A stretch of DNA of 32,000 bases. Source: Candidatus Lokiarchaeum ossiferum (GTDB taxonomy: Archaea; Asgardarchaeota; Lokiarchaeia; Sigyniarchaeales; Promethearchaeaceae). Shown here piece by piece: positions 5,030 to 18,440 of the stretch. A model generated the notes under the pieces. That model did not search any database, was not told where the DNA came from, and worked only from the letters and a program-made list of their open reading frames with translations. The DNA lies in NCBI GenBank assembly GCA_025839675.1, contig CP104013.1:4470001-4502000 (forward strand). Reading direction: 5' to 3'. Every line of letters begins with the position of its first letter. Positions within the stretch are counted from its first letter, which is position 1. The translations under genes were made by a program, and so were the position numbers.

Positions 5030-5162
5030 TTTTTTATTCTTTTTAAAAGCATCAATCATAAGTTTTTTTCGAAATATTTCCAACAGAAATTTTCAAACTG
5101 AAACTAAAAGAGAAAAAAAAAAAGTTAATCCTTATAGAAATTGATTTTGGATTTGATAACTT

Positions 5163-6239
5163 ATGACTGAAGAAGAGAATGCAGCTCAAAAAGCTGCCGA
5201 AGAAGAAGCCGCTAAAAAAGCTGCTGAAGAAGAAGCCGCTAAAAAAGCTGCTGAAGAAGAAGCTGCTAAAAAAGCTGCTGAAGAAGAAGCAGCTAAAAAA
5301 GCTGCTGCAGAAGACGCTGCCAAAAAAGCTGCCGAAGAAGAAGCTGCTCAAAAAGCTGCTGAAGAAGAAGCCGCCAAAAAAGCTGCTGAAGAAGAAGCCG
5401 CTAAAAAAGCTGCCGAAGAAGAAGCCGCCAAAAAAGCTGCTGAAGAAGAAGCCGCTAAAAAAGCGAAAGATAAAAAAAAACAAGAAGAAGATAAAGATAA
5501 TCTTAAATTCTGTATGGGAACTAGTGATCTACTATTCAAGGTTCTTAAAGCAATTGATTTTAAGGGTGGAGAATGTTCAGTATCCTCATTAACTGTTGCA
5601 TTAATGTTAGATGAGAAAGTGTTCATTGATGGGTTAAAAACTGGTTTAATGTTGAATTTATTAGAGAAAGATGGCGATATTTTTGCAACAACCGATTTGG
5701 GTGATCGCTTGCTGAGTTTAAGTAGTGTAGAACAAAAATCCTTAATTGCGAAAGAATTTTTAAAAATTGAATCGTACCGAGATATTGTATTTCGGATGAA
5801 AATGGCGACTGGAAAAGAAATTCAGATCAAAGAACTTGAAAAAGCAATTTATATTATTTTACCTAATATTCGGGAAGAAATTCGGAAGCAAATTACATCT
5901 GCTTTCATTAATTTTGCAAAATATGCTAATATTATTGAAGAATTGGCACATGCGGGAAATCCAAGTGTTAAATTGACTACAAATGGTGAATCTCAATTGG
6001 ATGCGGTTCTTCAAGAACGAAAGCGGAAAAAGAAAGGGGGTGCAAGTTCAGGACCGTCTTCATCAAGTGCTCCAGCAATTGTTAGTGATTTATCTTGTCA
6101 ATCTTGTGGGAAACCTATTATGTCTGATTACAACATGTGTCCCTATTGTGGAACCGCATTGAAACGTTCTTGTTCGAATTGTGGCAAGGAACTTCAACCT
6201 GGGTGGAAAATGTGCCCATTCTGTGGTACTGCACAGTAA
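5163..6239 (+). CDS. Repeat protein: N-terminal (AEEEAAKK)n charged-alanine helical rod, central winged-helix-like region, C-terminal double zinc ribbon
   Basis: About 12 copies of an 8-aa AEEEAAKK unit are followed by a K/E/D linker. The central region LLFKVLKAIDFKGGECSVSSLTVALMLDEKVFIDGLKTGLMLNLLEKDGDIFATTDLGDRLL is wH-like. The C-terminus CQSCGKPIMSDYNMCPYCG...CSNCGKELQPGWKMCPFCG has four CxxC pairs, i.e. a DZR-type double zinc ribbon (6096-6236). Confidence 0.75.
   Translation: MTEEENAAQKAAEEEAAKKAAEEEAAKKAAEEEAAKKAAEEEAAKKAAAEDAAKKAAEEEAAQKAAEEEAAKKAAEEEAAKKAAEEEAAKKAAEEEAAKKAKDKKKQEEDKDNLKFCMGTSDLLFKVLKAIDFKGGECSVSSLTVALMLDEKVFIDGLKTGLMLNLLEKDGDIFATTDLGDRLLSLSSVEQKSLIAKEFLKIESYRDIVFRMKMATGKEIQIKELEKAIYIILPNIREEIRKQITSAFINFAKYANIIEELAHAGNPSVKLTTNGESQLDAVLQERKRKKKGGASSGPSSSSAPAIVSDLSCQSCGKPIMSDYNMCPYCGTALKRSCSNCGKELQPGWKMCPFCGTAQ
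5181..5464 (+). repeat. Tandem 24-nt coding repeat (consensus gctgctgaagaagaagccgctaaaaaa), about 11-12 copies
   Basis: Directly visible head-to-tail 24-nt units that differ mainly at synonymous third positions (gcc/gct/gca, gaa/gac). The repeat generates spurious ORFs in other frames and on the opposite strand. Confidence 0.95.
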
Positions 6240-6292: not shown

Positions 6293-6970
6293 ATGCCGAA
6301 ATATTATTCCACACCAAAATATGTGTCCATTGATTTGTTCGGAAAAGTTGATGTTGGAAAAACAACCATCTTTGAATTATTTGCTGGAACGCGGTTATTG
6401 AAAGATGGAGGCAATCTATCCTACGATTTTCGCACGTATTACGCGAAGTGTTGGGTTTTGCAGCAACGATGGGAACATACTATGGTTTTTTTGGCAGATC
6501 CAAAGTTAGAAATGCGATGGAAAGACCTTCGGGCTAAGCAACTGCGGAAACTTATGGAGCCTACCAACATTTTGATTTTAGTTACTGATTCAACCCTTGA
6601 AGATGTACGGTCCATTAAACAATCCTTCGAAATGTGGCCAAAAATTAAAAAAAAATTAATTATTTTTGTAATTGCCAACATGCAAGATAAGGAAGGACGA
6701 CTATCTGTAGAAGAAATCAAACAATTTCTTGAAATGAAAGATGTTATTGGAATTTCGGCGATTCAACCGGGAGCAAAGGAAAAAGTGGAACAATTCATTG
6801 AAGATGCTACTTTGCGTTTTTTTGGAATGCTGGCAAAACGGGGGCAAGCTCTATTGCTCTATGATGATGATGAAATTGGATTTGGAAAAACTCCAAAAGA
6901 GAAGAAATCTAAAAATGGGAAGTATTCTTCACGAATTAGAAAGTTACAAAAAAAACTCGATGAAAGTTAA
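6293..6970 (+). CDS. Small Ras-superfamily-like GTPase with atypical switch II and a polybasic C-terminal tail
   Basis: G1 P-loop GKVDVGKTT (6341-6367). G4-like ANMQD (NKxD variant). G5-like ISAI. The hydrophobic strand LILVTDS occupies the position of the post-switch-II strand. The expected DxxG is replaced by ADPKL. The tail reads GKTPKEKKSKNGKYSSRIRKLQKKL. Confidence 0.7.
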   Translation: MPKYYSTPKYVSIDLFGKVDVGKTTIFELFAGTRLLKDGGNLSYDFRTYYAKCWVLQQRWEHTMVFLADPKLEMRWKDLRAKQLRKLMEPTNILILVTDSTLEDVRSIKQSFEMWPKIKKKLIIFVIANMQDKEGRLSVEEIKQFLEMKDVIGISAIQPGAKEKVEQFIEDATLRFFGMLAKRGQALLLYDDDEIGFGKTPKEKKSKNGKYSSRIRKLQKKLDES

Positions 6971-6987: not shown

Positions 6988-8193
6988 TCATATATTCGCA
7001 GATTTGGATAGAAGTTCTTGTTCAATATCCCGTTTTTCCCTGAATTTTTTTCGAAATATACTTAAAACTCCGAAAATCAGGAAATATCCAAGTATTATAA
7101 TAATTAGGGTTGTTTGGTGCGAATCTGCGAGTGTTATCATGTTCATTGCAACCCCAATGATAAAACCTGTAAACAATCGGCTGGAAGTGGTTGCTTTACG
7201 AATAAGTAATGCTTGTAATCCCCAATCTGTCAGTGGTAGCAAAGGTAATAATGCTGCAAACCAAAATGCCCATACTCCTGATATTTGTATTTCCAAACTA
7301 TAGGTAATCAATGAAATGATAAAAAATGTGACCGCGGCCCCCAAAATCATGGCTGTGCATCGAGTACATAGATAAACACGTACTTTTCCCAGTTGAATTA
7401 CTATGGTATGATCATCTTCAAAAAATGAATGATGGGTTAGACTTTGGACATAACATTCCCCTGGCTGAGGAAAATAGGATTTTAATTGTTCATCATCTTC
7501 ATTTTCTTCTTGTGCTACTAAGATGGCTTCTTCTTCTTTTGAAAGAGGAAAGTATGGGCTTAATAATCGATCCAGAATCCACAAACCTAACCATGATGGA
7601 ATAATAATCAACAAATTATTTACAAAGAAATTTGCTAATAATAGCCATCGCGCTGTATTAAGGGTCAATTCTGCTGTAAATGTAGTATTAAAAATAAATC
7701 CAAAAAATAATATTGGAAGAAAGAGCAGGAGTTGTGCTAAACTAAAGCCTATTTGTTTGAATACATGTTTTCCTTGATAATATTCGCCTCCTCTATATGG
7801 GCGAAAACTTTCCGCCAGAATACTCCATCCTACATAAACAATTAGTATCCATTGGATATTTGTAGAGTGAGTCCATTCTAGGAAAAATTCTCCTGCAATT
7901 CCCGCGAAAAATACTGCATATCGATTAAATATTTTTGCTAAAATCCACAAGATACAAAGCGAAATCCAAAATAGAATGTGAAAATGTAATAAAATTTGTG
8001 GATTTAGGGAATAGATCGTTAGATAATTAAGTGCTCTAATACCGATCGCAAGGAAATAATACAGCGAAAAGCTCAATAAAAATTCAAAGAAATAAAACAA
8101 ACTTTGCTCAAAGGCGCCTCGGTGAATATTTTTCAAAGGATCATGATGTCGTTTCAAAGGTTGAGCTATATTCGTAGATGAGTCCATTTTCAC
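6988..8193 (-). CDS. Polytopic membrane protein with C-terminal DUF2085-like module
   Basis: About 10 hydrophobic segments. The C-terminal part HHSFFEDDHTIVIQLGKVRVYLCTRCTAMILGAA ... PLTDWGLQALLIRKATTSSRLFTGFIIGVA resembles the DUF2085 pattern (H.SF...CaRCtG..lG ... DW..q...r.s.n..R..tG). This is recalled from memory. Confidence 0.5.
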   Translation of the reverse strand: MKMDSSTNIAQPLKRHHDPLKNIHRGAFEQSLFYFFEFLLSFSLYYFLAIGIRALNYLTIYSLNPQILLHFHILFWISLCILWILAKIFNRYAVFFAGIAGEFFLEWTHSTNIQWILIVYVGWSILAESFRPYRGGEYYQGKHVFKQIGFSLAQLLLFLPILFFGFIFNTTFTAELTLNTARWLLLANFFVNNLLIIIPSWLGLWILDRLLSPYFPLSKEEEAILVAQEENEDDEQLKSYFPQPGECYVQSLTHHSFFEDDHTIVIQLGKVRVYLCTRCTAMILGAAVTFFIISLITYSLEIQISGVWAFWFAALLPLLPLTDWGLQALLIRKATTSSRLFTGFIIGVAMNMITLADSHQTTLIIIILGYFLIFGVLSIFRKKFREKRDIEQELLSKSANI

Positions 8194-8212: not shown

Positions 8213-8917
8213 CTACGCGAAGTTATAAATATTATCAATCGCTATGTTAAACTCTTCAATTTTAGCATTAAATCCTTTCTGAAGAACTCGAAATATCATT
8301 GCTCGAGCAGCGGGCGAAGGAATGTCTAATATAGAAAGGTCTTCCTTAATAATATTCTGGCCTATAATCATATGATCCGTTTGGTCTTTTAAAATCGCTT
8401 TACATTCGTTAGCGGTTGGAAAAGCACATCGACATAATTCATAATAATCCTTCACATCATTTTCAATGGTTAAAAAGGGGTAGATTCCTAAAACTTGAGC
8501 TTCAAAGGTTTTCTTCAAATTTTCGCGCAATCGAGTGAAATTGGGATGGTTTTGTTTGCATTGTCGACCTGTTTGGTCATTTTTCAGATAACCCGGAAAT
8601 TTGTCTTCCAATCGTCGATAAAATTCTTCACTTTGGGGTTCCACTCCATCAATAACCATTTGTTTGGTCATTTTCAAAGTCCCATTTATACTTTTTCGAG
8701 TACCATGCTCTAAATCTTTTTGAACCATTTTTGAGTAAAATGCTTTAACAATAGGTCGTAAAAGAATCGAAATTCCACTCATTTCTTCATGAATTAGTTG
8801 ACTCCCAATATCTAAAGATGACTTCATCTGTTTAAATAGATGTTGACGCACGAGTTCAACATTGTGTTCAAGAGTATCAATGGAGATCGAAATTGGTGAG
8901 AGTGAAGAATTTATCAT
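8213..8917 (-). CDS. Hypothetical soluble protein (234 aa)
   Basis: Clean ORF, 19 nt upstream of the 6988-8193 gene on the same strand, so probably co-transcribed. No recognisable motif. Confidence 0.55.
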   Translation of the reverse strand: MINSSLSPISISIDTLEHNVELVRQHLFKQMKSSLDIGSQLIHEEMSGISILLRPIVKAFYSKMVQKDLEHGTRKSINGTLKMTKQMVIDGVEPQSEEFYRRLEDKFPGYLKNDQTGRQCKQNHPNFTRLRENLKKTFEAQVLGIYPFLTIENDVKDYYELCRCAFPTANECKAILKDQTDHMIIGQNIIKEDLSILDIPSPAARAMIFRVLQKGFNAKIEEFNIAIDNIYNFA

Positions 8918-8993: not shown

Positions 8994-9719
8994 TTATGTT
9001 TCAGTATTTGGAGGATCGGGGTTTTCTGCATCAGAATCGCTCAAATTTTCCAATAAATCGGTACTCCAGTTTGAAATATCGATGGTGAGTTCAATATCAT
9101 CTTCATTGGGACATACTACTCGAATTGTCAATTGCTCCGCAGTTCTGTCAATGATTTCTGGAAAATGACAATCATCTGCAAGTTTAGAAACTATAAATCG
9201 AATATATGCTTCCGAGAAAACTGTTAAGGATCCTTGCAATATTTCCTCACCTAATCTTCCAATATGAAAATGGACTCGTTTACCCTTTCGTTCTTTCTCA
9301 ATCAATTCTGCATCGACTAACCGAACGGCATGGTGGCGAACTGAGTCATGATGAATATTCAATTCCCGTGCAATTTCATTTTGAAAGCAATCGGCATGAT
9401 TTAAGATATAGAGAAATATCAGTAATGCATTTTTATTTTTGATAAGCATAAACGCCCTTTCCATTTCTTTAGTACGTAAGTTTTTTGGAAAGAAGAGTCG
9501 TTTTCCATCTATTTTATCTGATTTTATTATGCCATCTTCCTCAAGTTTGCTCAAATGATATAGTAATGTTGCACTACTAATTTTTTCATCCCCTTGCGAC
9601 ATGAGCTTATAAAAATAAGTTCCAGGGTTTTCACAGATTATTTTGTAGATATTTCTCCTGGTTGGATGAAGTAAGAACAATTTTTCGTCAGAGTGGTGTC
9701 GCCGGGGCATATTTTTCAC
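8994..9719 (-). CDS. Transcriptional regulator with two tandem winged helix-turn-helix domains (ArsR/TrmB-like) and a C-terminal domain ending in an acidic tail
   Basis: wHTH 1: RRNIYKIICENPGTYFYKLMSQGDEKISSATLLYHLSKLEEDGIIKSDKIDGKRLFFP. wHTH 2: ALLIFLYILNHADCFQNEIARELNIHHDSVRHHAVRLVDAELIEKERKGKRVHFHI. Both show the helix-turn-helix plus beta-wing (G-K-R-x-F/H) pattern. Confidence 0.7.
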   Translation of the reverse strand: MKNMPRRHHSDEKLFLLHPTRRNIYKIICENPGTYFYKLMSQGDEKISSATLLYHLSKLEEDGIIKSDKIDGKRLFFPKNLRTKEMERAFMLIKNKNALLIFLYILNHADCFQNEIARELNIHHDSVRHHAVRLVDAELIEKERKGKRVHFHIGRLGEEILQGSLTVFSEAYIRFIVSKLADDCHFPEIIDRTAEQLTIRVVCPNEDDIELTIDISNWSTDLLENLSDSDAENPDPPNTET

Positions 9720-9746: not shown

Positions 9747-10184
9747 TTATTCTTCGAGCTCGATTCGTTCGAAAAATGGTTTTTTAACATGGGTTATTGA
9801 TGACATTTTTTCTTTAATTATATCAAATTTGGCATCAGTGTCTTCAAAAACGCCTTCCCAAACACAGATCTCGTCTTTGAAACAAATTCCTGTGGAAAAG
9901 AGGTTGGTAAGATCTAATTCTTTTAATGTTTTTCTCAATGATGTGAAAAATGATTCATTTAAGGAACTTTTATCCAAAATTAGTTTGACAAACAACACTC
10001 GAGAGGCATTCGTTAGAAAGAATGATAATTTCTTTGAATCTCCTGGAATGACTGCTACTAAATTTTGTCCCAAGGGAAGTAAAGCATCATATATTCTTTT
10101 CGGAATTTTTATTTCCTCAGACAGCTTTGCAATAAATGCTTGAGCTAACTTTTTTGATTCGTAATATTCCTTTTTATCATCCAT
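9747..10184 (-). CDS. Hypothetical small alpha/beta protein (145 aa)
   Basis: The track gives 9747-10247, but the first 21 codons (MWFLILPFDARFNMHFFQFNI) look like AT-rich read-in. I prefer ATG at 10184 (MDDKKEYY...). It lies 27 nt upstream of the wHTH gene on the same strand and is divergent from the 10321 gene. Confidence 0.5.
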   Translation of the reverse strand: MDDKKEYYESKKLAQAFIAKLSEEIKIPKRIYDALLPLGQNLVAVIPGDSKKLSFFLTNASRVLFVKLILDKSSLNESFFTSLRKTLKELDLTNLFSTGICFKDEICVWEGVFEDTDAKFDIIKEKMSSITHVKKPFFERIELEE

Positions 10185-10320
10185 GATATTAAATTGGAAG
10201 AAATGCATATTAAATCTTGCATCAAAGGGTAAAATTAAAAACCACAAAGCGTAAAATTAAATTATCGAAGAACCGAGTCGTTAAAATAAAAATAAGAAGG
10301 TCGAGGAAAAAACGCAATAT

Positions 10321-13300
10321 ATGTTTAGTTTCATAGTTCTTGGTGATTCAGCGGCAGCCGTTGATTATTTCGATCATGCTGGCCTTTCGAATATAGATCA
10401 AGGTGATATTTCGAAATGGGAAAAACAGTGCACCTTTCAAGATAATGAAATTGATTTGACCCTCGATGTTCCATTAACTGATGGGTTTGAATATGATGAA
10501 TTTTTACCGATGGCAGATGGTATTTTATACTTTCTAAACCCAAATTTTCCCGAACAATTTGCCTTATTTGAAGATATTGTTCAAATCATTCAGAAAATAA
10601 ATCGAAATGTACCCTTTGCTTTAGTTTTCCGGGATTCTAAACGTTTGATTCAAACCTCAACTAATCAATTACTATTTTCTATATGGGAAAAGTATTCTTT
10701 TGAAGCTTTTATCGCAGATTTAGGCAGTCCTAATTATACAGATTATATTTTGGAAAGTATTTGCGAGAGTATTATAACTCGCCAAGCCATTATTAATCTT
10801 GATACTGCTTGGATGCAGGTACCCTTATTATATTCAAAAGTAAATAGGCACATTAATACTCAAGATTGGATCTCTGCGGCCCGTTTGGTGGAAAAAATTG
10901 CACTTATTTCACAAAAATGTAAAAATTCTGATTGGCAAATTTATGCTGAACAAGCCGCTTGGTTATATGCAAAAGGTGGTGCAGTGTTAGATGCTTCAAA
11001 GATTATTGGTAATTTTAATGAAGTTTACGCTGAACGTTACAAAAAAATTTATGTGGATCAGTTAATTTATCAAGGTAGAGTTCTTCACAATGAGAAAAAT
11101 TTTGCCCAAGCTGCCCAACAATTTGAAACGGCGGGAAATTGGGCACGTTTCGAACTCAGTGATTCTATTTTAATTAAAAAATCCTTAAAAAATGCAATAT
11201 ATTCTTGGATCTCCGCTTGTGAAATTCAAAATGCTTTTTCTCTTTTGGAACGATTTGATCATAATGAAATGATTGATATTTTAGAAGAAGTTACTGACAA
11301 AATTGCTGGGGTTGCTGATTTTCTCACTTCTCAAGGGCAAGATGATTTTGCCAAAGCACAATTATATCTCTGTTTTCAAAAGTATCAAAAAGCGGGATTA
11401 TTTGATTCCATCAAAGTATTTGCTAACAAAACAGTTAAAATTCTTAAACGAATTTTAGAGCGACATCTGCGAAATCTGGATGTTGATTCTGCAAAATTGA
11501 CTCTTGACGAACTTTATAATATTTGGGAGACTTTTGGTATTGAATCTGAAAACATTGACTCGTATCTTTTGCGAGTTGGAACTTTATTTATCGAAAGGCA
11601 AGATTTTCAAAAAGTGGAAGTTATCCTTCCCAAAATTGAATCTGGTGAAATTAAAAATCAACTTTCAAAAGCTCGTATGGATGAAGAAGAACGGATTAAA
11701 TCAGATTTACGACAAGACGAATTGGAGGATTTAACCGATGCTGTCGCTATCCTTAAAACGTATGTAGATGAAGAAAAAAAACAAATTTTGGCATATAATA
11801 GTCAAGTATATCAAGAAACTCAAGATCTCCTCGAACAAAAGCAAATTTCGTCAGGTTTAAAATATATTCATCAATATTTTCAGTGGTTAACGTTTATTGG
11901 TGAATCTGAATTTTCTTATGATGTCTACGAGCGGATTCTCTCTTTTTATCTCACCTTGGGATCTTTTGATAAATTTATTGAAGAAATCTCCCATTTACCC
12001 GAAGGACGGAGAAAAGTGTATCTTCGGGAAAAAGTGTCGATTATTATTAATTCTTTGAACAATCTCATGGTGGATGGCGAGACTACATTGATTTTACACT
12101 ACTCAACTTCCATCATCAAATTATATCGAAATCACCTGCTTTATGATGAGTCTCGTGATTTTGCCGAACTCTTGGTCAAGTTTTTACTTGAAAAAAGTAA
12201 GACCATGGCTCAGCAAGGAATTTTAGCAAGTATCAGTGAATCTATCGGTCTTGTCTCTCAAGTTGAAAACATCTCAAAGATGTATTTGGATTCAAAACAA
12301 TTTGATTTGGATCCCATCTATTCCCCTATTGTTATTTTTTATATAAAAACTGCTGATTTCAAGGAAGCTCGAAAATACAATGAGCGAATTAATTCGGATT
12401 CTCTAAAAGAAACGTATTATTCACAAATTGAAGAAATCGTGGGCGAAAAAAGTCGATCCAAAGCGATGGAGGCTCAACAGAAACAAGAAGTCCAATTTTT
12501 CGTGGAGCAACTCTCGCAATTACGAAATTTGGCTCGAGATCAACGAATTACTTCTGAAAATCTGTTGCGAATGCGGTTAGGTTTAAGAAGACGGTATTTT
12601 CAAAAACCCATTGATCTTATTCTGAAGGGAGAGTTTCCAGACGCTGCTCAACAATATTTTGAAGTCGCAGAAACTTTGATTAAAACAAAGAAATTTGAAT
12701 TGGCAGGAATTAGTGCGGGTATAGGAACTATTCTCTGTCTTTTAGTAAAAAATGTTTCTCTTCTAAAAAATCACTTAGATAAACTTAATCTTATGGCTGG
12801 GGTATCCATTTCAATATTTAAAGAAATATTTTCCGTGAAACTAATCTATTACATTCTTAAAATGATTGAGATTAATAATCCAACGTTAATTATAAATTCT
12901 TTGAAGCTATACGAGAGTTTGGCCTTATTTCCTGAAGAAAAAATGGTCCTTGATACTTTACTTGGAAAAGATATTGATTTTGAAGCATTAGTTCATTCCG
13001 ATCTCAGTTCACGCATGGATTCAGGCGAAATTAAGTTTTCAACGAATCACCAGCATCTTATCGATAAAATCGCGTTTGATCCATCTCAACGATCAAAACG
13101 AAATTCCATTGAACAGAAATTTTGGGAAGAAGCACAAAATTATTTAGCCCGACAAGAATATGAACAAGCATCTTTAAGTTATTTAGCCCAAGTAGATCAC
13201 TTAGTCGTTCGCAATAATGAAAAATTTGCCATTATATCCATCGTAATGGCCTTTTTAGCCTTATTGAAAGCGAAAAAACCTGCAGAAGTTTATTTCGAAT

Positions 13301-14055
13301 ATGAAAAATTTTATTATCAATTTGATAAAAAATATGAACGCGTGGCAAAATCTGAATTATTTGCTTTACTTGAGATAATATTGCAATATTGGGTGAAAAA
13401 AAGTGCTCAACAGACGATTCGACAGATCCTTTTGGCATTTCAATCGAAATTGCCGTTATTTGATTGGGAATCTTCTCTAATTAGTGGCTTTTTAGGGGAT
13501 TTTGAAGGAAAAGGATCTCAAATTTCATCAAATACGGATAAGAATGTGCATCTTGGTTCTCCTGATGAATTTGATGATTCAACTCTTCAAACTCAGCAAA
13601 TTGTGGTTTTAACCCAAGAAATCAGTGATATGCAGTCGAATTTCGCTGAATTGCTCCATAAACGTAATTCAATGGTGAATTCTTATTATAAAGACATAAT
13701 TTCTTACCTGACCGCCGAATCCTATTTAGAGGCTGCTACTGAATATGAAAAGCTTGGGAAACGCATGGCACGACGAAATGATTTTAATGCTGCAAGTTTA
13801 ATGCTTCTCTTATCTCTGCTTTCACGCTTAAAACATAAACAATCGGTGAATGAAATCACTGTTGCCCTTGATACCGTCTTGGGAAAATTAGGAATAGTTA
13901 AAAAAATTCTTGACGATCACTTTGGAGTCAAAATCGCTTATTTTGTTCTGGATGTATTAAAATCTAAAAATGAAAACTTAAAAACAAATATCCGAAACCT
14001 CCTCCAATTATTACCGCTTCTATCTGCGGAAAAGGTACTTGTGCAGTTGGAATAA
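10321..14055 (+). CDS. Giant protein: N-terminal degenerate Ras-like G domain (pseudo-GTPase) fused to a ~1080-aa TPR/alpha-solenoid
   Basis: The N-terminal ~165 aa follow the small-GTPase strand/helix order with every nucleotide motif degenerated. FIVLGDSAAAVDYF stands for ivlGdsGvGKs. IDLTLDVPLTDGFEYDEF stands for v.l.iwDTAGQE. ADGILYFLNP stands for a.g.ilvyD. NVPFALVFRDSKR stands for ip..lvGNKxD. The rest has recurring helical-hairpin signatures of TPR/SNAP-like type (YQGRVLHNEKNFAQAAQQFETAGNW, KGEFPDAAQQYFEVAETLIKTKKFELAG, YLARQEYEQASLSYLAQ, YLTAESYLEAATEYEKLGKRMARRNDFNAAS). Confidence 0.6.
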   Translation: MFSFIVLGDSAAAVDYFDHAGLSNIDQGDISKWEKQCTFQDNEIDLTLDVPLTDGFEYDEFLPMADGILYFLNPNFPEQFALFEDIVQIIQKINRNVPFALVFRDSKRLIQTSTNQLLFSIWEKYSFEAFIADLGSPNYTDYILESICESIITRQAIINLDTAWMQVPLLYSKVNRHINTQDWISAARLVEKIALISQKCKNSDWQIYAEQAAWLYAKGGAVLDASKIIGNFNEVYAERYKKIYVDQLIYQGRVLHNEKNFAQAAQQFETAGNWARFELSDSILIKKSLKNAIYSWISACEIQNAFSLLERFDHNEMIDILEEVTDKIAGVADFLTSQGQDDFAKAQLYLCFQKYQKAGLFDSIKVFANKTVKILKRILERHLRNLDVDSAKLTLDELYNIWETFGIESENIDSYLLRVGTLFIERQDFQKVEVILPKIESGEIKNQLSKARMDEEERIKSDLRQDELEDLTDAVAILKTYVDEEKKQILAYNSQVYQETQDLLEQKQISSGLKYIHQYFQWLTFIGESEFSYDVYERILSFYLTLGSFDKFIEEISHLPEGRRKVYLREKVSIIINSLNNLMVDGETTLILHYSTSIIKLYRNHLLYDESRDFAELLVKFLLEKSKTMAQQGILASISESIGLVSQVENISKMYLDSKQFDLDPIYSPIVIFYIKTADFKEARKYNERINSDSLKETYYSQIEEIVGEKSRSKAMEAQQKQEVQFFVEQLSQLRNLARDQRITSENLLRMRLGLRRRYFQKPIDLILKGEFPDAAQQYFEVAETLIKTKKFELAGISAGIGTILCLLVKNVSLLKNHLDKLNLMAGVSISIFKEIFSVKLIYYILKMIEINNPTLIINSLKLYESLALFPEEKMVLDTLLGKDIDFEALVHSDLSSRMDSGEIKFSTNHQHLIDKIAFDPSQRSKRNSIEQKFWEEAQNYLARQEYEQASLSYLAQVDHLVVRNNEKFAIISIVMAFLALLKAKKPAEVYFEYEKFYYQFDKKYERVAKSELFALLEIILQYWVKKSAQQTIRQILLAFQSKLPLFDWESSLISGFLGDFEGKGSQISSNTDKNVHLGSPDEFDDSTLQTQQIVVLTQEISDMQSNFAELLHKRNSMVNSYYKDIISYLTAESYLEAATEYEKLGKRMARRNDFNAASLMLLLSLLSRLKHKQSVNEITVALDTVLGKLGIVKKILDDHFGVKIAYFVLDVLKSKNENLKTNIRNLLQLLPLLSAEKVLVQLE

Positions 14056-14206: not shown

Positions 14207-15562
14207 ATGGGATTTATGGAAAAATTAAAAGAAAGTTTTTCTTCTGTGGCAGCGCAGATGAAAGAAAATACTAAACAACTTGAGAGTGTAATCAAAGAAA
14301 ACTCGGAATTATTGGATTCTCATGATAAACTCAGTAAAGAAAGTGCAGAGGGTATCTTAGAATTAAAGAAATATGGGGAAAAAGAAACTCCTCTCTTAAA
14401 AGATGCTTTTGTTGGTCTCTCAGAGACACTCAAAATGGTGGAAGGAGAACGTGCTAAGATGACTTCTGAATTAAGAAGTCAATTTTTACAACCTATGAAG
14501 GAATTAGTTGCTCAATTTGATCAATTAGAGCGCGAAATCAAAGAAGATGAATCTGCTGCCAAAAAATTGGCAAAAATTAAAAAGAAATTGGACAAAGAAA
14601 AAGCAAAACCGGCTGAAAAACAAAAACCGGGAGCGATTGAAAAAGCTGAAGCTGATTATCAAAATGCAGTCAAGATTGCTGAAAAGGAACATGATGATGT
14701 GATCAAGGCAACCGCTGCATATCAAGAACAAAAAATCAGGAAAATTAAAGAATGCTTGGCTGTGATTGTTGCCCAACATAAAGGTTTTCATCAAATTGTA
14801 CTATCGAATTTAACCGATACTAAAATGTATATTGAAATGATTGTGCCGGAACAGAAGGAAGAGGTCAAAGAAGCTATTGCAGAAACCCTTGAAAATCTGG
14901 AAGAATCGCTTAAAAGTTGTGATCAAATATATACTGTCATCGCCCATGTCAAAAAAGATTTACACTCCGTTATCAAGGAAAACATGGAAATGTTGAATGC
15001 TCACCTGAAAGTCACTAAAGAAAGTAAGGAAGGAATCAACGCTTTTAAAGATTATGGATTGAAAGAAAGTCCTGCTCTCGGTGAAGCTCTATCTTCTTTA
15101 GGGGGTTCACTTGAAATCATAGAAGTTAATAGACAAGCTTTTGTCGAACAAATGAATCATGAATTTATTCGCCCCCTAAAAGAATTGATTGATACTTGGG
15201 ATAAACTCCGAGAATTAATCAAAAAAGATGTTAAATCGCTTAAAAATGATCAGAAAATAGTCCGAAAACTCGAAAAATTGAAAATGCAAGATCCTACAAA
15301 ATTGAAACCTGGTTTATTGGAGGAAAAGGAGAAGGAAGCTGCGTCTATTCGAGATGCGTCTACGAAATTGCACAAATCAATGCTCACATCCTATCAAGAA
15401 TTCACTGCTGCTAAGTCTAAAACCATGAAAAGTTGCTTAGGGTCAATGGTGGAGCGCAACTTAAAGTTTCATAATCAGGCTTTAAATATTATTGATAATG
15501 CAGAAATTTTAGTCTCACAAATTGATATTTCAAAAGAAATGGATTATGAATTGGACATTTAA
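14207..15562 (+). CDS. Tandem BAR-domain-like protein (two ~225-aa three-helix units; the first has an N-terminal amphipathic helix)
   Basis: Internal duplication with a 227-aa offset: S27-VIKENSELLDSHDKLSKESAEGILELKKYGEKETPLLKDAFVGLSETLKMVEGERAKMTSELRSQFLQPMKELV versus S254-VIKENMEMLNAHLKVTKESKEGINAFKDYGLKESPALGEALSSLGGSLEIIEVNRQAFVEQMNHEFIRPLKELI. Each unit matches remembered endophilin/amphiphysin BAR patterns: a ...FGrELG...ALgevGEam..L.evkd.ld.evkqnFidPLq.L block, a K-rich Kkl...r.dyd.kkk segment, and a terminal helix VAQHKGFHQIVLSNL / MVERNLKFHNQALNIID resembling vqAQleYHkQAvqIL. The N-terminus MGFMEKLKESFSSV is amphipathic. Confidence 0.6.
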   Translation: MGFMEKLKESFSSVAAQMKENTKQLESVIKENSELLDSHDKLSKESAEGILELKKYGEKETPLLKDAFVGLSETLKMVEGERAKMTSELRSQFLQPMKELVAQFDQLEREIKEDESAAKKLAKIKKKLDKEKAKPAEKQKPGAIEKAEADYQNAVKIAEKEHDDVIKATAAYQEQKIRKIKECLAVIVAQHKGFHQIVLSNLTDTKMYIEMIVPEQKEEVKEAIAETLENLEESLKSCDQIYTVIAHVKKDLHSVIKENMEMLNAHLKVTKESKEGINAFKDYGLKESPALGEALSSLGGSLEIIEVNRQAFVEQMNHEFIRPLKELIDTWDKLRELIKKDVKSLKNDQKIVRKLEKLKMQDPTKLKPGLLEEKEKEAASIRDASTKLHKSMLTSYQEFTAAKSKTMKSCLGSMVERNLKFHNQALNIIDNAEILVSQIDISKEMDYELDI

Positions 15563-17083: not shown

Positions 17084-18440
17084 ATGCCAATGGCTGAATT
17101 TACAGATTTACTGACCCAACCTTGGGGGGTTTTTGATGGAGTTGATATCGAGAAGTATATCATCGGAACCTATATTGTCAAAGTCGGAAAAAAACAAAAT
17201 GGACTTACTATGGGACAGTTCGCGGCTGTCGAACAAAGCACCGGAACATGGATTCGTGTTCCTGCTGAAACCGCGGAAGTACGCAAAGATCATGTGGCCA
17301 AATTATTAGGTTGCTATGAAATTCCTAATTGGGAATATGAAATTCCAAAGGATGTGGAAAGTCGCGATTATGTAATGATTATCGGCTGGCCTAAGGTCAA
17401 CTTGCTCAATGAAGATAATAAATTGAACTTTGCTCTCCTCTTTACGGCTTTAATCGGCAATATTTCCATGGGTGGCAAACTCAAACTCATGGATATTTGG
17501 TTTCCCAAAGATATTTTGGCTACCATGCCTGGACCGAAGTTTGGAATTGAAGGGATTCGCAAATATCTTGGAATAGAAAAGCGACCTTTGCTCAATAACA
17601 TGATCAATTAAGAATAGGATTTCCCTATCTTAGATTAAACCGTGTACTGGGCATACGGCTGCTGTCGCTGGTGATTTAGCTTACCAAGTCGCTCTTGGAG
17701 GTGTGGATGTTGTCAAGGATGATGAACTTATCTCCGGGCACGCGTTCAATACCATTGAAGATCGTGTCACTGCCGTTATGGCGGGTTTAGATAAAGCCAA
17801 AGAAGAGACCGGTGAGAAGACTATCTACATGATCAACGTCACCGACAATCTTCCCAAAGTGTATGACAATATTGCAACCGTTCAAGCCCATGGGGGTAAT
17901 GGTATTCTTATTAACTATTTACCACAAGGTCTCTCCGTCGTTCAACATATTGCGGAAGATCCAAGCGTCAAAATCCCAATTCAGATGCACATGGATTTCG
18001 CCGGAGTATGGTATTGCGATGCGTGGAGTGGCGTTACCAGCAAACTTACGCTTGGTAAATTGCCCCGATTAGTGGGTGGGGATGTAGTTGTTATGCCTGC
18101 TCCTTATGGTAAAGCTCCAGTGGTACCTGAACGATTTATTCAAAATGCTATGGAATGTGTATATCCTTTACCTGGCATTAAACCGATGATGCCTATGCCT
18201 AGCGGTGGCATAACTCCTGGTATGGTCGAATTTGCCATGCGAGATATTGGATCAAACATCATGATTGGTGCTGGTGGTGGAATTCATTCTCACGAGATGG
18301 GACCAACATCTGGAGCCATTGCCTTCCGTCAAGCCATTGATGCCTTTATGGCCTGTATTCCTGCCAAGAAAGCGGCCAAAGAACACAAAGAGCTTGGTGT
18401 GGCCATGGGTATGTGGGGCAGCAAAAAAACTGGCAAGTAA
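17084..18440 (+). pseudogene. RuBisCO large-subunit-like protein (form IV/RLP-type active site) interrupted by a 31-nt insert. As encoded it splits into 17084-17611 and 17634-18440
   Basis: N-terminal half: AAVEQSTGTW (aaESSTGTW), LIGNISMG (GNvfg), EKRPLLNNMI then stop. C-terminal half, in the +1 frame from 17634: IKPCTGHTAAVAGDLAYQVALGGVDVVKDDE (iKPKlGl...GGlDf.KDDE), YGKAP (loop-6 GK), PSGGITPG, GAGGGIHSH, GAIAFRQAID. Removing 17606-17636 restores RPLLNNMI-KPC with the same RPLL-to-KP spacing and the same 26-residue K-to-K(DDE) spacing as spinach K175/K201. The track start at GTG 17703 is an artefact of the split. Confidence 0.85.
17606..17636 (+). other. 31-nt self-contained hairpin insert interrupting the RuBisCO-like gene
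   Basis: aattaagaataggatttccctatcttagatt folds as 13 bp: 17606-08 with 17636-34, G17633 bulged, 17609-12 with 17632-29, A17613 bulged, 17614-18 with 17628-24, loop AUUUC. It contains UAA (17609-11) in the upstream frame and UAG (17631-33) in the downstream frame. Boundaries can slide by up to +2 nt (AA/AA). Confidence 0.8.

Follow-up and report, generated by a model that had tools for sequence, protein, structure and literature searches.

Here, we describe a complete gene at 10321-14055 (+) in a 32,000-nucleotide stretch of the Candidatus Lokiarchaeum ossiferum genome (contig CP104013.1, forward-strand positions 4,470,001 to 4,502,000; the window hereafter), and we find that its 1244-residue product is the first member of a protein family that has not been described before, whose members have 1070-1290 residues, are confined to Asgard archaea, and occur in a single copy per genome. 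In its architecture, the protein very probably combines a Ras-fold N-terminal domain that lacks the nucleotide-binding motifs with a modular scaffold resembling tetratricopeptide repeats (TPR), as judged from predicted structures. For its function, we put forward, far more tentatively, that the N-terminal domain might serve as docking head for a scaffold associated with the membrane. Taken together as one statement, architecture and function seem to us somewhat better than an even bet, a grade set by our high confidence in the first part and our low confidence in the second. Structural statements throughout rest on AlphaFold2 models.

The gene has an ATG start and 1244 codons plus a stop, and the protein matches NEF87_003838 of Candidatus Lokiarchaeum ossiferum at 100% identity. 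Given its length of 3.7 kb in DNA of about 33% G+C (the value for the window) and its full-length conservation in 39 species genomes, this open reading frame (ORF) is not one of chance.

A predicted Ras-like N-terminal domain and its missing motifs

To obtain the fold of the N-terminal domain (residues 1-165; 10321-10815 (+)), residues 1-178 were modelled with AlphaFold2 from an alignment of 23 homologues, which gave a predicted local distance difference test (pLDDT) score of 87 and a predicted template modelling (pTM) score of 0.83. The elements of the model follow one another as β1 (2-8), α1 (10-20), β2 (23-27 and 30-39), β3 (42-51), α2 (58-64), β4 (67-72), α3 (77-93), β5 (99-103), α4 (114-124), β6 (128-131), and α5 (140-153). 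As modelled, this is the order found in small GTPases, the antiparallel β2-β3 arrangement included, and it agrees with the Ras-like strand and helix rhythm that a first-pass annotation, made from the DNA letters, had recognized in residues 1-165. In a Foldseek search of the domain against the Protein Data Bank (PDB), 757 matches reached E ≤ 1e-3, and the top 50 among them were without exception Ras, Rab, Ral, Rap, Rem, or Ypt proteins, with E of about 1e-6, template modelling (TM) scores of 0.56-0.70, and 10-18% identity. Since the best 50 of the 757 are small GTPases throughout, the CheY-like or flavodoxin-like fold that the same annotation had named as an alternative finds no support there.

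Within this predicted G-domain fold, the motifs that bind GTP are lacking. Our regular-expression scan covered 77 retrieved proteins, namely 75 family members and two spurious repeat matches, and found the Walker A signature (G/AxxxxGK[ST]) in 0/77 within the first 400 residues, the span searched for the P-loop, while [NT]KxD occurred just three times among the 77, each time at an unrelated position. In the model, a single residue lies between the end of β1 (G8) and the beginning of α1 (S10), so that the phosphate-binding loop appears to be either lost or taken up by the helix, and only two residues lead from α1 to the next strand, by which switch I is essentially gone, with few residues left. 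It was thus correct to say beforehand that the GTP-binding P-loop had been lost, though GDSAAAVD is not the eight-residue substituted loop it was taken for, as α1 already starts at S10. At the DxxG position, we find D49-V50-P51-L52, where the Asp is often kept and both the Gly and the Gln are absent in all aligned members. The NKxD position after β5 is taken by R104-D105-S106-K107 (FRDSK), and the SAK position at β6 reads EAFIADL. Here, the first-pass annotation had called every nucleotide-binding motif lost, with DxxGQ degenerate and NKxD replaced, and the scan and alignments bear it out; in every family member, the P-loop, the switch I Thr, the DxxG Gly and Gln, the NKxD, and the SAK are all lacking. 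A G-domain fold with its conserved G-motif residues missing, as found here by model and regular expression, would correspond to class i of the pseudo-GTPases as Stiegler and Boggon classify them (a scheme used in PMC12490416).

Compared with distant members, the G-like domain together with module A1 of the adjoining solenoid has 35% identity, the other modules 20-28%, and the linkers 9-12%, and residues D66, P74, F83, N115, W122, W164, and P168 are invariant across the family. Judging from these alignments, the N-terminal domain is not decaying, and purifying selection on it is no weaker than elsewhere in the protein.

Some atypical GTPases bind nucleotide despite degenerate motifs, MRAS having been reported as a 'broken switch', and the domain could in principle still be a nucleotide-binding switch with non-canonical residues (a class ii or class iii pseudo-GTPase, or an ATP binder), in which case the protein would be a regulated effector. 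This would fit with the retention of D49 at the DxxG position in many members and with a D66-G67 pair before β4 that is invariant or nearly so. Even so, we consider it improbable, given that the Lys and Ser/Thr of Walker A are absent from all 77 retrieved proteins, that the one residue between β1 and α1 in the model leaves no phosphate-binding loop, that neither NKxD nor SAK is present to bind the base, and that the acidic character of residues 1-165 (net charge of -17) disfavours the binding of polyphosphate.

An equally improbable explanation, in our estimate, is that the domain is a generic three-layer α/β fold, flavodoxin- or Rossmann-like, which is nearest to Ras by convergence and is not GTPase-derived. 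On its side are the lack of any significant resemblance, in sequence or profile, to the GTPases tested, the low identity in the structural alignments (10-18%), and the fact that our exhaustive profile search retrieved no canonical GTPase. What argues for a GTPase origin instead is the complete strand and helix order of Ras, antiparallel β2-β3 hairpin included, along with the best 50 structural neighbours being small GTPases without exception. Moreover, the family motifs YxFK[IV]LxLGD in β1 and DG[IV]L[YF]F[LI][ND]P in β4 stand at the expected places for residual Rab-like signatures, and we take them, by comparison with the Rab/Ras consensus, to be presumable relics of a Rab-type ancestor, which makes them a lead and not a test. 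A weak profile alignment to the G domain of ArfL, an Arf/Rag-like GTPase encoded near many of the homologous genes, is also in register across β4-α3-β5-α4-β6.

Several observations nonetheless weigh against a nucleotide-free domain of GTPase descent. Its fold is predicted only, and the TM scores of 0.6-0.7 and root-mean-square deviations of 4-5 Å to GTPases mark it as strongly diverged. Searches of PDB sequences with the whole protein and with the N-domain profile (phmmer and hmmsearch) yielded nothing, and when the 23 N-domains were scanned individually against Pfam, a GTPase family was found in none. The alignment to the ArfL G domain is itself not significant (hhalign P=0.0037, probability 9%), and was the best of the profile comparisons with GTPases from the related loci, a route by which the first-pass annotation had proposed to check the kinship. 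Further hhalign comparisons of the domain gave nothing against the family of the small GTPase at 6293-6970 in the window, against the P-loop GTPases of about 207-220 residues (MMR_HSR1 type) that lie some 9-10 kb upstream in clade 0, the largest clade of related loci, or against one Rab-like GTPase of strain MK-D1. As none of the profile-profile comparisons is significant, GTPase homology is not demonstrated by sequence; the descent that we infer for the domain rests on its predicted fold, and the loss of nucleotide binding is suggested by sequence and model.

Helical repeats of the solenoid

Following residue 163, the protein is predicted to be helix-turn-helix throughout, in about 1080 residues of stacked antiparallel helix pairs, and is, as modelled, a TPR-like α-solenoid. 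The AlphaFold2 model in question spans residues 1-1198 and has a pLDDT of 81.6 and a pTM of 0.37, a value at which the arrangement of the domains relative to one another is unreliable, and this too counts against the architecture we propose. In hydropathy, no convincing transmembrane segment was found in the protein.

The solenoid is not uniform, and is made up of two repeats of about 250 residues, one helix of 62 residues, three repeats of about 140 residues, and three disordered linkers. In hhalign, the two A repeats (approximately residues 221-469 and 470-720) match each other with a probability of 83-91%, and the three B repeats (approximately residues 748-893, 922-1062, and 1108-1244) with a probability of 97-99%, both ranges being from sub-alignments. 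By the boundaries that we assign from the model and the internal repeats, a junction helix with the invariant W164 and P168 leads into module A1 (together residues 166-463; 10816-11709 (+)), which carries most of the invariant residues, among them E210, A213, E269, E278, Y349, Q356, and N400. A short linker, predicted to be disordered (pLDDT below 50) and poorly conserved (12-24% identity), comes next (residues 464-474; 11710-11742 (+)), followed by module A2, a diverged copy of A1 (residues 475-692; 11743-12396 (+); hhalign E of 1e-6 to 1e-5), and by the single 62-residue helix of the model, which leads into B1 (residues 693-754; 12397-12582 (+)).

Module B1 (residues 755-893; 12583-12999 (+)), of about 140 residues, ends in LALFPEE, with F870 and E873 invariant, and is separated by a linker disordered in the model (residues 894-907; 13000-13041 (+)) from module B2 (residues 908-1062; 13042-13506 (+)), which ends in LPLFDWE. 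A low-complexity linker, likewise disordered in the model (residues 1063-1088; 13507-13584 (+)), then connects to module B3 (residues 1089-1244; 13585-14052 (+)), which ends in LPLLSAEK, with P1232 and E1237 invariant. When 33 B modules are aligned, an Arg near the start, a Tyr, and the Glu of a terminal LPLFxxE are all invariant. Family members of about 1090 residues lack the middle B module. Across the family, then, the superhelix has two modules of about 250 residues, one long helix, two or three modules of about 140 residues, and flexible linkers, and in model and alignment the N-terminal domain is joined to it via the invariant Trp/Pro helix.

A Foldseek search with the full model (approximately residues 170-1198) gave Ctr9, IFT139, IFT70, Ski3, Naa15, Syf1-type and other spliceosomal HAT proteins, APC subunits, Tom70, and OGT, with E of 2e-5 to 1e-3, TM of about 0.1, and 9-14% identity. 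At sequence level, the TPR clan of Pfam contains no family that matches the protein at E ≤ 0.1, and a faint TPR_2 match appears only in the homologue P0019. A profile of the B module found no relative among PDB sequences, and the first hairpin of the module has a weak match to the PP5 TPR (E 1.5). The earlier description of this region as more than 1000 residues of a TPR- or SNAP-type solenoid is therefore sustained for a TPR-like, all-helical stretch of about 1080 residues and not for anything SNAP-specific, as the matches are generic TPR/HAT proteins. For the same reason, kinship with SNAP-type, coat, or intraflagellar transport (IFT) proteins is unsupported, and the comparison to coats and tethers that had been drawn at the outset remains an analogy, with nothing specific to any of these among the solenoid matches.

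That the protein is nevertheless homologous to, or a forerunner of, one particular solenoid complex of eukaryotes, such as a coat adaptor, a TPR subunit of IFT-A/B, or a tether, with a GTPase-like subunit built in, is a reading that could draw on the IFT139 and IFT70 matches, on the Arf-like GTPase neighbours, and on the Asgard host lineage. We give it slightly less credit than either of the two alternatives above, because Ctr9, Ski3, Naa15, spliceosomal HAT proteins, APC, and Tom70 match just as well as the IFT proteins, the model has no β-propeller, no eukaryotic relative came from the exhaustive search with the N-domain or from the word-indexed one with the full-length protein, and a structural survey of Asgard eukaryotic signature proteins (ESPs) leaves TPR and solenoid proteins unmentioned (PMC12962969). 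The narrower reading as a protocoatomer was ruled out, as no propeller is present in the model.

An NTPase followed by TPRs, as in STAND proteins, is the commonest such architecture in prokaryotes. A degenerate STAND-type sensor of this kind, Avs-like in defence or in signalling, would account for an N-terminal α/β domain before a long TPR array in a gene of unassigned function, and is still very unlikely, seeing that PADLOC matches neither the protein nor its neighbours, that the fold is nearest to Ras-type GTPases and not to NB-ARC or NACHT and has no Walker A, that the gene is single-copy with a synteny stable across deep Asgard lineages, unlike patchy defence islands, and that no effector domain is present.

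Family distribution and gene neighbourhood

To delimit the family, we combined a word-indexed search of 5.8 billion proteins with an exhaustive HMMER search of the N-domain profile against 1.84 billion representatives, and scanned for loci in 185,579 species genomes (one genome per species). The word-indexed search gave 26 relatives at 26-86% identity, nearly all of full length (1086-1264 residues), and those that are named all come from Lokiarchaeota/Promethearchaeota. In the HMMER search, there were 58 matches, nearly all of 1070-1290 residues or fragments of such proteins; two repeat-type matches and a marginal one of 2608 residues look spurious, and none of the 58 is a canonical GTPase. 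A distant branch of about 1090-1106 residues (E of 1e-8 to 1e-4) shares this architecture and likewise has no P-loop; its labels, which are the submitters' own, are Sigynarchaeota, Hodarchaeota, Promethearchaeota, and, for one metagenome-assembled genome, Bathyarchaeota. The locus scan located 39 loci, all in Promethearchaeota and never two per genome, and these include the cultured Promethearchaeum syntrophicum MK-D1 and Candidatus Harpocratesius repetitus.

Pfam, NCBIfam, and PADLOC gave zero matches to the protein, and a literature search on Asgard archaea combined with pseudo-GTPases, on DUF2085, on the locus tags, and on Asgard TPR/GTPase architectures found no description of the family. 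Along with the negative search of PDB sequences, this upholds the first-pass opinion that the fusion is not a described family. The architecture section of a survey of MK-D1 small GTPases has single-domain GTPases and roadblock or longin fusions, with the solenoid fusion absent (PMC10933270). Likewise, the family is not described in the Asgard Arf preprint, in the asCOG analysis, or in the structure-based Asgard ESP survey, in which TPR and solenoid proteins go without mention (PMC12962969). The haloarchaeal vesiculation system ArvA/ArvB/ArvC was also considered, and is unrelated.

The gene context was compared over 44 related loci, with fractions calculated from the loci that have enough flank. 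Within the window, a short divergent intergenic region (10248-10320) precedes the gene, and a TATA-like AT-rich element in it (TTAAAATAAAAATAA; 10281-10295 (+)), about 33 nt 5' of the ATG, reads as a putative archaeal promoter. Two upstream genes recur, always in divergent orientation. The gene at 8213-8917 (-) encodes a soluble protein with no known domain (234 residues here; about 220 in the family) and is found divergently upstream in 36/38 loci, and the one at 6988-8193 (-) encodes a multi-pass membrane protein with about seven hydrophobic segments and a C-terminal DUF2085 (Pfam E 2e-10), in 34/36 loci. The family of the former, the ~220-residue partner, has 255 proteins, and all those named by their source are labelled Asgard; it often occurs as a tandem pair of paralogues (e.g. 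L017:8355-9790), and its invariant residues include N19, G38, E45, P55, Y61, D114-Q115, and H124. For DUF2085, our literature search found no paper describing a function. At L005:5275-7548 (-), the DUF2085 protein is fused to an α-L-fucosidase domain (757 residues in all), which hints at the possibility that it faces or handles surface glycans.

In Lokiarchaeales-type genomes, the window included, two further genes lie between the pseudo-GTPase gene and this pair. The first (9747-10247 (-), with the real start probably near 10187) encodes a protein of about 140 residues with invariant C102 and C108 and a WEGVFE motif, is present in 13 Lokiarchaeales-type loci, and has no relative in Pfam, NCBIfam, or the PDB. 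Adjoining it is a double winged-helix regulator (HTH_HVO_0163_N / HTH_20; 8994-9719 (-)), linked in the same 12-13 loci.

Downstream, ArfL lies at a distance of 1.1-1.5 kb in 24/24 clade-0 loci with enough downstream flank. The clade-0 ArfL is an Arf/Rag-like GTPase of 409-423 residues, with the G motifs GLDNAGKT, WDxGGQ, and HKxD. It is also found at L042, immediately downstream of the family gene in L005 (L005:13718-15148), and in triplicate in L004 (L004:14833-18742) and L015 (L015:14965-19077). Taken as a family, seen at L004, L015, L005, and about 23 further loci, ArfL proteins have 409-476 residues, arranged as an N-terminal domain of about 130 residues, a G domain, a C-terminal coiled coil, a Pro-rich stretch, and a basic tail; at least 135 relatives exist, all named ones are Asgard, and in most non-Lokiarchaeales loci the gene is just downstream of the pseudo-GTPase gene. 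Within the window, there is no ArfL.

The gene at the position of the L005 ArfL in the window (14207-15562 (+)) encodes an all-helical protein of 451 residues, with an internal tandem duplication of a unit of about 220 residues and a weak FAM92/BAR-like Pfam match (E 5e-4, below cut-off). We considered this gene as an equivalent of ArfL, and found it to be unrelated. It had also been put forward at the outset as a partner, as had the small GTPase at 6293-6970 (+), which is convergent with the DUF2085 gene; the BAR-like gene has a counterpart in 0/44 related loci and is thus a lineage-specific neighbour, and the small GTPase adjoins the DUF2085 gene in six close relatives only, so neither is upheld as a general partner. 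With a P-loop of GKVDVGKT, NMQD for NKxD, and ADPKL lacking the DxxG glycine, this GTPase may by its sequence be an atypical switch itself.

Elsewhere in the window, the gene at 5163-6239 (+) encodes a protein whose N-terminal region is of low complexity, (AAEEEAAKKA)n, and which has a double zinc ribbon at the C terminus, and an antisense Phe/Ser-rich ORF of 143 residues (5052-5483 (-)) is an artefact of that repeat. A gene for the large subunit of RuBisCO (17084-18440) is split into ORFs at 17084-17611 and 17703-18440 by a 31-nt insertion (GATCAATTAAGAATAGGATTTCCCTATCTTA, at about 17602-17632), which shifts the frame and is missing from the intact 441-residue orthologues at L001 and L013. 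The insertion forms an imperfect hairpin with GAT on both sides, is unique in the window, and has a folding z-score of only -2.0; it could mark a pseudogene, reflect an error in the assembly, be the footprint left by a tiny mobile element, or be a mini-intron of the mRNA.

Comparison with known systems and a proposed role

By the features tested, the protein is most like class i pseudo-GTPases and like pairs of a GTPase and a solenoid, and is a member of neither. Among the former, AAGAB, CENP-M, pG1/pG2 of p190RhoGAP, and the dynein light intermediate chain (LIC) share with it a G fold that is kept, G motifs that are lost, and use as a protein-binding module. As for CENP-M, Basilico et al. are said to have reported in 2014 that it binds the solenoid protein CENP-I. 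CENP-M, dynein LIC, and p190RhoGAP are cited as pseudo-GTPases in PMC12490416, the study in which the nucleotide-free pseudo-GTPase domain of AAGAB binds adaptor σ subunits through a non-switch surface, AAGAB thereby acting on adaptor complexes that contain solenoids. These eukaryotic proteins are short or have other fusion partners, and their sequences are unrelated to that of the present one, which is archaeal and has its domain fused to about 1080 residues of solenoid; our literature search found nothing that pairs Asgard archaea with pseudo-GTPases.

ROCO/LRRK2 proteins are similar in that a single chain unites a Ras-like domain with long repeat solenoids, but they contain an active Roc with COR and have solenoids (ARM/ANK/LRR) that are mainly N-terminal to Roc. 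In the Lokiarchaeum protein, the helical repeats come directly after the G-like domain and Pfam Roc and COR have no match. Rac-p67phox and MglA-SgmX, the latter prokaryotic, are further instances of a Ras-fold domain that works with a TPR array, though as separate polypeptides and with GTP-dependent binding. Ctr9, Ski3, IFT139/TTC21B, Naa15, APC, and Tom70 resemble the solenoid in forming a superhelix of helical hairpins, but the 2+3 module layout and the LPLFxxE ends have no counterpart among the TPR/HAT matches. In the same organisms, Rab-, Rag-, and Arf-like GTPases also have a Ras-fold domain fused to other domains, and in MK-D1, roadblock or longin domains accompany 26 of the 74 small-GTPase-related sequences (Tran et al. 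2024, PMC10933270); these fusions, in contrast, keep the nucleotide motifs and have no solenoid.

Turning to function, we suggest, as a possibility, that the N-terminal domain would be a class i pseudo-GTPase, free of nucleotide and fixed in a single conformation, and would serve as a constitutive protein-binding head instead of a switch. The A and B modules of the solenoid might be docking platforms, and the B modules would then supply two or three binding sites of equal kind, each provided with the invariant Arg, Tyr, and LPLFxxE Glu. As a whole, the protein could be a cytosolic scaffold that is recruited to the membrane via the DUF2085 protein and the ~220-residue partner, and that may engage or mimic an Arf/Rab-type GTPase. 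Against this proposal, it must be said that gene linkage alone is no proof of physical interaction, and that the distant branch represented by L003 does not have the DUF2085 and ~220-residue partner genes as neighbours (the gene upstream in L003 was compared as a diverged member of the partner family, and rejected). Moreover, synteny within clade 0 extends over a larger block (p170 to p243, a TFIIB gene included), and so part of the ArfL linkage may amount to inherited gene order, and among the best 120 ArfL relatives none is from a chromosome-sized contig of Lokiarchaeum or MK-D1.

More speculatively still, and with little confidence on our part, the protein might be the core of an Asgard-specific machine for membrane remodelling or sorting, in which the DUF2085 protein and the ~220-residue partner would anchor the giant solenoid, a permanently 'on-shaped' Ras-like head would pair with or replace an Arf/Rab-type GTPase, and the B modules would gather copies of a cargo or coat-like partner. 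If true, this would be an archaeal counterpart that is analogous to, but independent of, the coats, adaptors, and tethers that eukaryotes build from a GTPase and a solenoid.

Asgard archaea carry many Ras-superfamily GTPases, and their cells show no obvious organelles. Reports of pseudo-GTPases have so far come chiefly from eukaryotes, and the family presented here would be a conserved, single-copy archaeal example, as well as the first with a dead G domain fused to a very large solenoid. Through its linkage to a membrane-protein gene, its frequent proximity to ArfL, and its presence in both cultured strains (L. ossiferum and MK-D1), it would offer a handle on the connection between GTPase modules and the membrane. 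Even if the protein were a static scaffold, the locus would contribute three new families found only in Asgard archaea (the pseudo-GTPase-solenoid protein and those of the genes at 8213-8917 and 9747-10247) and two new repeat modules.

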